Of a DNA stretch of 4,008 bases, positions 2,847 to 4,008 are shown piece by piece. Both the position numbers and the translations under genes were made by a program. Origin of the DNA: a virus (lineage: Duplodnaviria > Heunggongvirae > Uroviricota > Caudoviricetes); the IMG/VR virus record IMGVR_UViG_3300014784_000118; one strand, 5' to 3'. Position 1 is the first letter of the stretch; each line of letters starts with the position of its first letter. The notes below the pieces were generated by a model. It did not search any database and was not told the origin of the DNA. It saw only the letters and a program-made list of their open reading frames with translations.

Positions 2847-3265
2847 CAGCACAGATAGCGGCTTACGGGCGGCTGGTGGCTGACCCACAGTTAAAGACCA
2901 CCAGCAAGGGCACACAAATGACGATGGCGAGTATGGCTGTCCCCCTGCCGTGCAGCCAGGCAGATGACGGAACGGCTACGATGTGGTTATCCGTCCTGGC
3001 GTTTGGCAGACAGGCCGACGCACTGGCAAAACACCGCAAAGGCGAGCTGGTGAGCGTGGCGGGTAACATGCAGGTAAGCCAGTGGACAGGCCAGAACGGC
3101 GAAACGCGGCAGGGCTGGCAGGTTATCGCAGACAGCGTAATCAGTGCGAGAACGGCGCGACCGGGCGGCAAAAAAGGCCAGCAGGGGCAGGCTACTGACG
3201 CACTGAACAGGGCAAAACAACAGGCGGGGAATGATGATCCGTACGGGGATAACATACCGTTTTAA
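2843..3265 (+). CDS. ssb: single-stranded DNA-binding protein (SSB-like, OB-fold), 140 aa
   Basis: The N-terminal about 105 aa follows the SSB OB-fold pattern: (I/V)xxxGRLxxDPxL near the N-terminus, then WLSVLAFGRQAD...KGELVSVAGNMQVSQWTGQNGETRQGWQVIADSV, paralleling E. coli SSB WHRVVLFGKLAE...KGSQVYIEGQLRTRKW. A Gly/Gln-rich linker follows, and the C-terminal tip ...DDPYGDNIPF resembles the canonical SSB DDDIPF tail. SD GAGGTGG lies upstream. Confidence 0.8.
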   Translation: MTAQIAAYGRLVADPQLKTTSKGTQMTMASMAVPLPCSQADDGTATMWLSVLAFGRQADALAKHRKGELVSVAGNMQVSQWTGQNGETRQGWQVIADSVISARTARPGGKKGQQGQATDALNRAKQQAGNDDPYGDNIPF

Positions 3266-3280
3266 GCAACGAGTGACAGA

Positions 3281-3303
3281 AGCCGGAGAAATCCGGCTTT
3301 TTT
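3281..3303 (+). terminator. rho-independent terminator after ssb
   Basis: Perfect 7-bp stem AGCCGGA (3281-3287) / TCCGGCT (3292-3298) with a GAAA tetraloop, followed by a T-run (3298-3303), 16 nt after the ssb stop codon. Confidence 0.65.
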
Positions 3304-3507
3304 GTAGGTACTCCTGGTGGGGGTGGCCTGTCCACGGGGCGGAGGGGCGCGGAAAAAGGCGCATTTTTTGATTTTTATGGCACCATCACCACCACTATAA
3401 GTTATTGATATGTTGAGAAATAAAAATTTTTAGTGTCGAATCAGGTTGTTTTTTGTTCATCACCGGAACGTTCCCGAAAACATTTACAAAAAACAGGCGC
3501 AAAAAAA

Positions 3508-3540
3508 GCGCCCCCGATTGCTGTTACCGGAGGCGCTTTT
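3508..3540. terminator. hairpin with flanking A/T runs (possible bidirectional terminator or regulatory hairpin)
   Basis: Stem GCGCCCCC (3508-3515) / GGAGGCGC (3529-3536), 7 of 8 pairs, with a 13-nt loop. It is followed by TTTT on the + strand and preceded by A7 (3501-3507), which gives T7 on the - strand. No minus-strand gene is evident downstream to use it. Confidence 0.3.
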
Positions 3541-3638
3541 ACACGACAAAGGAGTTTTTATCGCCAGGATGACGAGTCTTAATACTGCTTCAATGGCAAA
3601 AATGCGTCAATAACTTTGCCTCTCTGAGAATAATCAGA

Positions 3639-3657
3639 AAAATCATAATCTGATTTT
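3639..3657. promoter_or_regulatory. operator-like inverted repeat upstream of the 3732 gene
   Basis: AAAATCA (3639-3645) - N5 - TGATTTT (3651-3657). It overlaps a -10-like CATAAT (3644-3649) and sits about 75 bp upstream of the ATG at 3732. Confidence 0.25.
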
Positions 3658-3731
3658 CAGGTAGAAAATGATTTATCTATTACTTTTATCGATCAATAAT
3701 GATGCCCGTTAATCAAAACGGAGGCGGATTT

Positions 3732-3926
3732 ATGCCAGAGAACAACACCAGAAAGCCGGATAAAAGTGCCACGGTACACATAGACGCCGGAACTATGGAG
3801 AAGATCGAACGCTATCAGCAGTTCATCAAAGATAATCACCCGGGTATGCCAGTACCCACGAAAGGACAAATCACACGCAGCGCGGTTGAATACTGGTACA
3901 GGGCAACGTTAGGGGTCTGGCTATGA
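3732..3926 (+). CDS. hypothetical small protein (64 aa), possible ribbon-helix-helix DNA-binding protein
   Basis: ATG at 3732 with a strong SD GGAGG (3720-3724, 7-nt spacing). The ATG at 3699 on the ORF track lacks an RBS. The pattern short beta-strand (ATVHID), helix (GTMEKIERYQQFIKDN), loop, helix (ITRSAVEYWYRA) suggests an RHH fold. Its stop overlaps the next start (ATGA at 3923-3926). Confidence 0.5.
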   Translation: MPENNTRKPDKSATVHIDAGTMEKIERYQQFIKDNHPGMPVPTKGQITRSAVEYWYRATLGVWL

Positions 3927-4008
3927 AAACATGGTTTTCCATTAAGGCTATGGCAGATGTTGTCTATGTGCGCATTTATGACGAGATCGGCGGGTACGGT
4001 GTAAAAGC
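3923..4008 (+). CDS. partial CDS (N-terminus only, runs off the window end); possible ClpP/S14-family prohead (head maturation) protease
   Basis: ATG at 3923 with SD AGGGG (3911-3915), translationally coupled to the upstream gene. The N-terminus MKTWFSIKAMADVVYVRIYDEIGGYGV contains the (I/L)YDEIG...GV motif characteristic of the start of ClpP-like phage prohead proteases. Only 28 codons are visible, so the family call is tentative. Confidence 0.4.
   Translation, partial: MKTWFSIKAMADVVYVRIYDEIGGYGVK

Follow-up and report, generated by a model that had tools for sequence, protein, structure and literature searches.

A small satellite-specific gene overlapping a protease–capsid fusion gene in a PICI-type satellite of Escherichia coli

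The window analysed here, i.e. the whole 4,008-nucleotide stretch of the IMG/VR virus record IMGVR_UViG_3300014784_000118, belongs to a Gram-negative satellite of the phage-inducible chromosomal island (PICI) type, an element of ~10 kb, classical or helper-embedded, with one captured capsid gene in its late zone. The last part of the window holds two genes, and the stop codon of the first overlaps the start of the second in the ATGA at 3923–3926. An initial annotation, made by a model from the letters alone, gave the coordinates and the description of these two overlapping open reading frames (ORFs) correctly, and was also right in noting that the place ahead of the protease is taken by a 64-codon ORF rather than by a portal gene:

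3732–3926, plus strand: gene of a 64-amino acid satellite-specific protein, PHROG 4934 (function unknown); ATG 3732, TGA 3926, Shine–Dalgarno (SD) sequence GGAGG at 3720–3724.
3923–4008, plus strand: first 28 codons of a gene for a fusion of a ClpP-like prohead protease, a scaffold linker and a major capsid protein; the gene runs off the window and encodes 629 amino acids in relatives.

The partial ORF that starts at 3923 reads MKTWFSIKAMADVVYVRIYDEIGGYGVK. Bases 3923–4008 are identical to those of two related elements, L004 and L005, and bases 3600–4008 show 100% identity to NZ_AP045170. In all annotated relatives, the ORF encodes 629 amino acids and is named ‘ClpP-like prohead protease/major capsid protein fusion protein’. 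The 629-amino acid protein of L004 scores 891 bits against the NCBIfam model NF045540 (cutoff 475); the 28-amino acid fragment from the window alone has no NCBIfam match. In full-length relatives, the model of ClpP-related head maturation proteases (NF045542) covers residues 16–172, the Pfam family CLP_protease matches with an E-value of 5e-33, and Phage_capsid_4 covers residues 330–623 (E 8e-55), beyond the end of the window. Alignment to solved ClpP structures places the catalytic serine in GMAASMAS and the histidine in MMIHAP, and both residues are kept in all 71 full-length fusion copies from IMG/VR. The suggestion, made from the motif YDEIGGYGV, that this ORF begins with a ClpP-like prohead protease is thus borne out by the NF045542 and CLP_protease matches and by the serine and histidine of the relatives. 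Of the Ser-His-Asp triad that was to be looked for, the serine and the histidine are present, and the position of the ClpP aspartate is occupied by threonine in the satellite fusion and likewise in the helper-phage proteins. Similarly, the region does start a capsid-morphogenesis module, as had been proposed, but the protease is not a gene of its own, being the first domain of the fusion.

The fusion gene is kept by selection in satellites: 11 of the 11 E. coli copies examined are intact, with a ratio of nonsynonymous to synonymous polymorphism (pN/pS) of 0.02–0.16. Truncation is found in six of the 78 IMG/VR copies, namely L053, L054, L055 and L057 (381 amino acids each), L047 (199 amino acids) and L087 (359 amino acids). 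The common 381-amino acid form may be a spreading pseudogene allele or a variant that retains only protease and scaffold. The satellite fusion shares 51–55% identity with the helper versions, including that of the prophage around it, and its best match in 50,697 phage records reaches 52%, the closest phage fusions being those of Stx (Shiga toxin)-converting phages, VT1-Sakai, CP-1639 and mEp460-like phages. Fusions from satellites of other genera are 58–62% identical to the one of the E. coli satellite. Because no phage copy exceeds 52%, the satellite fusions form a separate lineage. In all three satellite lineages that were aligned, 23–35 residues are missing from the Pro/Ala-rich linker between protease and scaffold and from the first part of the scaffold segment.

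The product of the small ORF at 3732–3926 is MPENNTRKPDKSATVHIDAGTMEKIERYQQFIKDNHPGMPVPTKGQITRSAVEYWYRATLGVWL, and its GGAGG lies 7 nt 5' of the ATG. The ORF list contains a longer version of 75 amino acids from an upstream ATG at 3699; position 3732 is the likely start because the extension lacks conservation in other genera and covers part of the −10 box proposed for the promoter-like element described below. Across at least 10 enterobacterial genera, the small ORF retains 51–84% amino acid identity, with 11 invariant and 17 nearly invariant alignment columns and with HPEMPVPTKGQIVRS as the most conserved stretch. With a pN/pS of ~0.3 and a dN/dS of ~0.1–0.2 at saturated dS, the gene is under purifying selection and is more than a chance ORF. 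The ATGA overlap with the downstream ORF is present in 76 of the 78 IMG/VR loci that carry the small gene, and in 70 of these 76 the downstream ORF encodes a full-length fusion with 600 or more amino acids. In all six additional genera examined, the pair sits within PICI backbones. RefSeq often misses the small gene and annotates it inconsistently: among the entries H33–H35, H37 and H40, it is annotated in some genomes only, although the DNA is 98% identical.

The small protein matches none of the families in Pfam or NCBIfam. Searched exhaustively with HMMER, 1.84 billion representative proteins yielded seven homologues; a profile search found 46, of which those with a named source come from Enterobacterales or from a Caudoviricetes metagenome bin. 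The genera represented are Escherichia, Klebsiella, Kosakonia, Trabulsiella, Salmonella, Yersinia, Dickeya and Moellerella, to which genome scans add Kluyvera, Pectobacterium and Rahnella; all the named homologues are labelled hypothetical. A tblastn search of the 50,697 phage records gave no match, which argues against its capture, together with the fusion, from any of the phages sampled. Because of this narrow, satellite-only distribution and the conserved pairing with the fusion gene, the 64-amino acid protein is a satellite-specific partner of the satellite capsid gene.

The nature of the element emerges from its relatives. A megablast comparison with 5,426 complete E. coli genomes matches the window in part in 1,836 of them and with at least 80% coverage in 12. 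The last 409 bases recur in 151 of the genomes, with up to three copies per genome, one at 100% identity, and the hosts include Stx-producing strains of O157:H7, O111 and O121. The relatives span ~9.7–10.6 kb and carry co-oriented genes in the order integrase, helix-turn-helix (HTH)/AlpA, (Bro-N or Icd-like), DUF4222, replicase, small ORF, SSB, 64-amino acid protein, fusion and 93-amino acid ORF. In every relative examined, the element ends 0.9–1.2 kb past the fusion gene, and none contains a portal, terminase, connector, HNH, tail or lysis gene. The relatives thus show the traits by which Gram-negative PICIs are recognised, namely an end with integrase and AlpA/HTH genes, a replicase with an adjacent origin, a size of ~10–20 kb, the co-orientation and the lack of lysis and tail genes. 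The window itself holds the RepA gene (992–2392), iterons (2392–2581) and SSB, with the integrase end outside it. Just past the RepA gene, at 2392–2581, there are five exact copies of the iteron AAAAGTGGG together with inverted partners, so that the replication (Rep)-iteron module recognised in the initial annotation stands, at an iteron-type origin. The complete prophage or capsid-forming satellite to which it pointed does not: a downstream search for capsid, portal and terminase genes, carried out in the relatives, finds the capsid domain but neither of the other two, and tail genes are missing as well. No portal, terminase or other structural genes follow the fusion, so that the element qualifies neither as a complete prophage nor as a capsid-forming PICI (cf-PICI). 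Satellites of this type are known from E. coli, where they parasitise lambda-like phages, and the region is real and largely ordinary.

Six of the relatives (L002–L004, L006, L007 and L010) interrupt gpA, the large-terminase gene of a lambdoid prophage, and the prophage's own head gene encodes a 659–675-amino acid fusion of the same family; two more (L011 and L018) are inserted in the helper's own ClpP/major capsid protein fusion gene. The terminase, portal, tail, lysis and immunity modules are found only in the surrounding helper prophage that the satellite interrupts. L001, L005, L008, L009 and L020 occupy chromosomal sites; the window ends short of its own att sites. One and the same capsid cassette occurs together with any of three unrelated replicases (RepA/AAA_25 in the window, a D5-type primase and DUF927) and with several integrases and attachment sites (tqsA, tRNA-Pro, gpA and others), which shows modular recombination between PICI backbones. 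The genome CP077465 carries two satellite-in-prophage composites, and a satellite with a capsid fusion that interrupts the helper's own copy fits the published pattern of helper-embedded PICIs.

Upstream of the two genes, the window contains the following features:

3280–3305, plus strand: intrinsic terminator just past the SSB gene (stem AGCCGGA/UCCGGCU, loop GAAA, U-run), marking the end of the replication zone.
3296–3470, plus strand: cos1, a copy of a helper cohesive-end site (cosQ/cosN and a cosB-like region), from alignment to helper prophage DNA.
3504–3540, no strand assigned: G+C-rich hairpin between cos1 and the cassette promoter, terminator-like on the minus strand, weaker on the plus strand and there followed by UUUU.
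3627–3678, no strand assigned: nested inverted repeats abutting the −35 box, a candidate operator or activator site, from an inverted-repeat search, local folding and direct reading.
3672–3700, plus strand: promoter-like element of the cassette (−35 TTTATC at 3672–3677, 17-nt spacer, −10 AATAAT at 3695–3700).

The terminator folds at −15.8 kcal/mol (z −4.2; none of 200 shuffles as good) and is conserved in relatives. The cos1 sequence aligns with the DNA upstream of the DUF1441 small-terminase gene in lambdoid helper prophages and is nearly identical to that of the L003 helper, the cosB side included. By analogy with lambda GGGCGGCGACCT, the cosN-like core may be GGGCGGAGGGGC at 3337–3348 (CACG-GGGCGGAGGGGC-GCGG); a scan with the lambda cosN pattern, allowing up to three mismatches, found nothing at the right place, and cos1 was recognised solely through the helper alignment. 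In relatives, a second, co-oriented site, cos2, lies directly past the fusion gene (L004:12095–12270, L001:19755–19930). It matches the cosB type of the L004 helper and cos1 resembles that of the L003 helper, the small terminase subunits (TerS) of these two helpers being 78% identical. Because the two sites match different helper cosB types, the cassette is bracketed by cos sites of two helper specificities, which may widen the helper range. A 67-amino acid ORF annotated across the 3' end of the fusion gene is a mere translation of cos2.

The hairpin at 3504–3540 reaches −27.4 kcal/mol (z −4.2) on the minus strand and −18.1 kcal/mol (z −2.1) on the plus strand, and the terminator scan likewise reports a minus-strand terminator-like site there; no nearby minus-strand gene is in need of one. 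Rfam yields only sub-threshold matches in the whole window, among them a plasmid antisense ctRNA at this hairpin (E 0.11). The arms of the nested repeats are AATCAGA-N10-TCTGATT (3627–3650) and a second pair at 3636–3651 and 3663–3678, and further candidate repeats surround the −10 box. Nine lineages retain the promoter-like element at the homologous position ahead of the small ORF. It reads TTTACG-N17-TATGAT or TATTAT in the metagenomic contig L012 and in the loci of Pectobacterium, Rahnella and Yersinia, where the spacer also holds the palindrome TACGAT-N11-ATCGTA; Moellerella has weaker versions of both promoter and palindrome, and L017 has TTGTCG-N17-TAGTAT. This conservation across genera suggests a sigma-70-like cassette promoter at 3672–3700.

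Several neighbouring genes differ among the relatives. In L020, which is 100% identical to the last 409 bases of the window, ssb and the cassette are separated by a gene for a PerC-family regulator (L020:8403–8675), which the window lacks. The 93-amino acid ORF of the E. coli elements is PHROG 1561 and is unrelated to the HTH protein found in other genera. It was considered as a diverged decoration protein and rejected, as it shows no similarity to the helper DUF2190 protein, to TerS or to any Pfam or NCBIfam family. In the other genera, the fusion gene is followed on its 3' side by a cos-like sequence and then by a gene for an HTH protein of 73–89 amino acids (L011:12305–12526, L014:7382–7639, L016:9262–9531, L018:9255–9479, L019:9238–9462). 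The L014 and L016 proteins are homologous to the DUF1441 small terminase in its N-terminal, DNA-binding part, with 41–49% identity; these ‘mini-TerS’ proteins could act like the Rpp proteins discussed below. Those of L011, L018 and L019 resemble mini-TerS by eye only. In L014, L016, L018 and L019, the HTH protein gene is followed by an ORF of 199–207 amino acids that reads, again by eye, as similar to the lambda tail protein gpI.

Taken together, positions 3296–4008 very probably open the late zone, for packaging and capsid, of a Gram-negative satellite of the PICI type with a size of ~10 kb, whose helpers are lambdoid phages of the Stx/mEp460/VT1-Sakai head type. The proposed order of features runs from the post-ssb terminator through cos1, the hairpin, the sigma-70-like promoter and the 64-amino acid gene to the ATGA-overlapping gene of the 629-amino acid fusion, and would continue, as in relatives, with a second cos site of another helper cosB type, the 93-amino acid ORF and the end of the element. 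In the fusion protein, one chain combines the ClpP-like maturation protease with a scaffold linker and a major capsid protein of the HK97-fold family. On helper induction, the satellite would excise and then replicate from the RepA-iteron origin, and the helper terminase (DUF1441 TerS and GpA, the large subunit TerL) would recognise and cut the satellite cos site and start packaging from there. The cassette might be transcribed from its own promoter or, in embedded copies, by read-through of helper late transcription (PMC10111431). The capsid subunit that it provides would process itself and assemble on the helper portal, either forming shells of its own or co-assembling with the helper subunit, as Ccm of the Staphylococcus aureus pathogenicity island (SaPI) SaPIbov5 does; the predicted outcome is a preference for packaging satellite DNA, interference with the helper, or both. 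That the fusion takes part in building capsids is an inference. A more far-reaching and doubtful extension is that the small gene and the fusion make up a minimal satellite-owned shell kit, giving the satellite its own, possibly smaller capsids that are built on a stolen helper portal and filled via helper-type cos sites. If so, this lineage would be intermediate between the classical PICIs with their use of helper capsids and the cf-PICIs, which build an entire head themselves, and the shortened protease–scaffold linker, the 64-amino acid protein, or both would set the capsid size.

Several observations weigh against this interpretation. A sigma-70 consensus scan of positions 3200–4008 called no promoter, and the proposed −35 box is weak. 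The 64-amino acid protein has no detectable relative of known function, and the confidence of its AlphaFold models is moderate. The fusion beyond its first 28 codons is known from near-identical relatives and not from the window. None of the 79 IMG/VR contigs has terminal direct repeats, and there is no circular or terminally redundant contig of 10–12 kb among them that would point to independent packaging. In EcCICFT073, the only E. coli PICI tested in this respect, the DNA is packaged at phage size, in full-size heads (PMC6092414), and deletion of the capsid homologue c1499 (or c1500) neither restores normal lambda plaquing nor relieves interference (PMC6092414). Such PICI capsid genes have also been reported to be dispensable for helper-assisted transfer (PMC10111431).

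Other readings of the cassette have to be set against the late-zone interpretation. The shell-building functions (protease, scaffold and major capsid protein) are all encoded and cos sites are present, as would be expected if the element were a cf-PICI-like satellite, or a complete or defective prophage, that makes the whole head by itself. This reading is nonetheless extremely improbable, given that the relatives' elements stop so shortly after the fusion gene, with no portal, connector, HNH, TerS, TerL, tail or lysis gene, whereas cf-PICIs are defined by capsid, protease, portal, connectors, HNH, TerS and TerL (bioRxiv 10.1101/2022.09.08.507074), and that the elements measure ~10 kb compared with 15.4 kb for the cf-PICI prototype. 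The cassette could also be a neutral remnant of a helper late operon, captured passively, with a spurious or decaying 64-codon ORF. The late zones of PICIs are indeed dynamic and filled with captured helper genes (PMC10111431), and the EcCICFT073 deletion, the reported dispensability of capsid genes in transfer, the truncated fusion copies and the frequent omission of the small ORF from RefSeq would all agree with a remnant. However, both genes are under purifying selection, and the pair with its ATGA overlap is conserved across at least 10 genera at 51–84% identity. Moreover, the satellite fusions form their own lineage, with ~60% mutual identity compared with 51–55% to helpers and no phage copy above 52%, and the small gene is absent from phage records. 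A passively captured, neutral remnant is therefore improbable.

The role of the 64-amino acid protein is less clear than that of the fusion. It had been described initially as ribbon-helix-helix (RHH)-like, a relationship for which Pfam, NCBIfam, PDB profile, AlphaFold, Foldseek and hhalign analyses give no support. A Pfam search with eight members of the family gave no match at E-values up to 10, PDB profile searches with the family gave only noise, and an hhalign comparison with RHH sequences scored no higher than one with shuffled controls. Two AlphaFold2 runs, with 8 and 31 sequences, both give a pLDDT of 66 and predict an extended N-terminal part followed by helices at residues 19–35 and 44–63; Foldseek searches with the model found nothing in the PDB and nothing below an E-value of 1 in BFVD. 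The order of the predicted elements, an extended segment and two helices, is compatible with an RHH fold but does not prove it. When the sequence is read directly, the succession of TVHID, a helix and the PTKGQIVRS helix resembles the RHH layout. Like the RHH regulators Arc, Mnt and CopG, the protein is small, with a basic N-terminal tail and a hydrophobic-alternating segment (TVHID) ahead of two helices, and its gene comes first in an operon behind a repeat-containing promoter. In contrast to typical RHH proteins, the loop between the helices is ~5 residues longer, and the relationship escapes profile, structure and fold searches. Two other origins were rejected: the ORF is not a leftover of the C-terminus of the helper portal, to which it shows no similarity, and BLAST matches to a gpW-like protein, a decoration protein and other helper or satellite proteins are at chance level.

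The protein may tentatively be taken for a small dimeric DNA-binding regulator, possibly RHH-like, that would act on the repeat-rich promoter region just upstream, and this role is favoured over that of an assembly or size-determining cofactor of the fusion protein, which appears rather unlikely, as does any role of a different kind. As an assembly factor, the protein might be a small internal scaffold or size determinant like the SaPI protein CpmB, or it might serve the fused protease as chaperone or inhibitor. Its gene is translationally coupled to a capsid gene of probable high expression and has a strong SD of its own, it occurs with satellite-type fusions only and never with helper fusions, its product is predicted to have two helices, and no DNA-binding family matches it, all of which would suit such a function. 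The protein is, however, unlike any known scaffold, a scaffold segment is already present within the fusion protein, and the basic disordered N-terminal tail and the first-gene position behind a repeat-rich promoter fit an autoregulator as well. The assembly role is rather unlikely. The location of the gene downstream of cos1, where phages put their small terminase gene, brings to mind a functional analogue of Rpp that redirects the helper terminase to the satellite cos site, which is the known strategy of E. coli PICIs (PMC6739421). Rpp proteins have ~144–153 amino acids and an N-terminal winged HTH that mimics the DNA-binding domain of the helper TerS (PMC6739421), whereas the model of the 64-amino acid protein shows no HTH, and BLAST detects no similarity to the DUF1441 small terminase. 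The mini-TerS encoded after the fusion gene in other genera, with its homology to the N-terminus of TerS, is a better candidate for this function. Terminase redirection also seems unnecessary because the satellite cos sites are near-copies of the helper sites, including the cosB side. Redirection by the small protein is, accordingly, quite improbable, and the regulator remains the preferred, if tentative, assignment.

Much of what is described here falls within an established framework. The class of element, the presence of helper capsid homologues in PICIs and the embedding of PICIs in helper late genes have all been published, and the fusion protein is routinely named by PGAP. The 64-amino acid partner gene, the cassette with its promoter as a unit, the linker deletion of the satellite fusions and the pair of cos sites of two helper types were not found in the PICI and cf-PICI papers cited here (PMC10111431, PMC6739421, PMC6092414, bioRxiv 10.1101/2022.09.08.507074), and no paper came up when the literature was searched for PICIs in combination with Clp protease. 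The new points are details within a known kind of element, and the small protein alone is unstudied. Capsid homologues are the commonest phage late genes in Gram-negative PICIs, with a role that has been unknown since 2018. The cassette may be a cleaner test case for this role, as it unites protease, scaffold and capsid functions in a single polypeptide and belongs to a satellite-only lineage under purifying selection that almost always comes with one small partner gene and a conserved promoter-like element. Because the cassette is often located inside Stx-type lambdoid prophages, it may affect the production of Stx-type phages.

The fusions of lambdoid phages (NF045540; VT1-Sakai, CP-1639, mEp460 and Stx2 phages) have the same domain order, family model, and serine and histidine. 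The phage fusion gene is preceded by a portal gene and the satellite one by the 64-amino acid gene, and the satellite protein differs from the phage proteins in sequence (51–55% identity) and in the protease–scaffold linker, which is 23–35 residues shorter. Ccm of SaPIbov5, like the fusion, is a diverged homologue of a helper capsid protein on a cos-type satellite (PMC8569155). Ccm redirects assembly and is the working model for a change in capsid assembly (PMC8569155), but its host is Gram-positive, and it consists of a capsid protein only, neither fused to a protease nor accompanied by a small partner gene. The cf-PICIs, such as EcCIEDL933, also have their own capsid protein and maturation protease (bioRxiv 10.1101/2022.09.08.507074); they add the portal, head–tail connectors, HNH, TerS and TerL, none of which is encoded here, and take only tails from the helper.

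Other Gram-negative PICIs are close counterparts as well. Those of the EcCICFT073 type (PMC6092414) are likewise ~10 kb long, with int, alpA, a replicase with its origin and a late zone, all co-oriented, and EcCICFT073 also has a homologue of the helper major capsid protein, two helper-related cos sites and lambdoid helpers. It differs in carrying capsid and decoration homologues of the lambda E and D types together with RppA, in place of the protease–scaffold–capsid fusion and the 64-amino acid gene; no Rpp homologue is seen in the present element. EcCICFT073 has its own cosB, whereas the cos sites of the present element copy the helper cosB region. Helper-embedded PICIs (PMC10111431) share with many of the relatives the insertion inside gpA or inside the gene of the ClpP/major capsid protein fusion, co-oriented with the late operon, and the order of four zones, Integration-Bro-Replication-Late (PMC10111431). 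PICIs with a CLP_protease gene were already noted in that work (PMC10111431), which does not describe the 64-amino acid gene or the cassette as a unit; others of the relatives described here occupy chromosomal sites (tqsA, tRNA-Pro and others).

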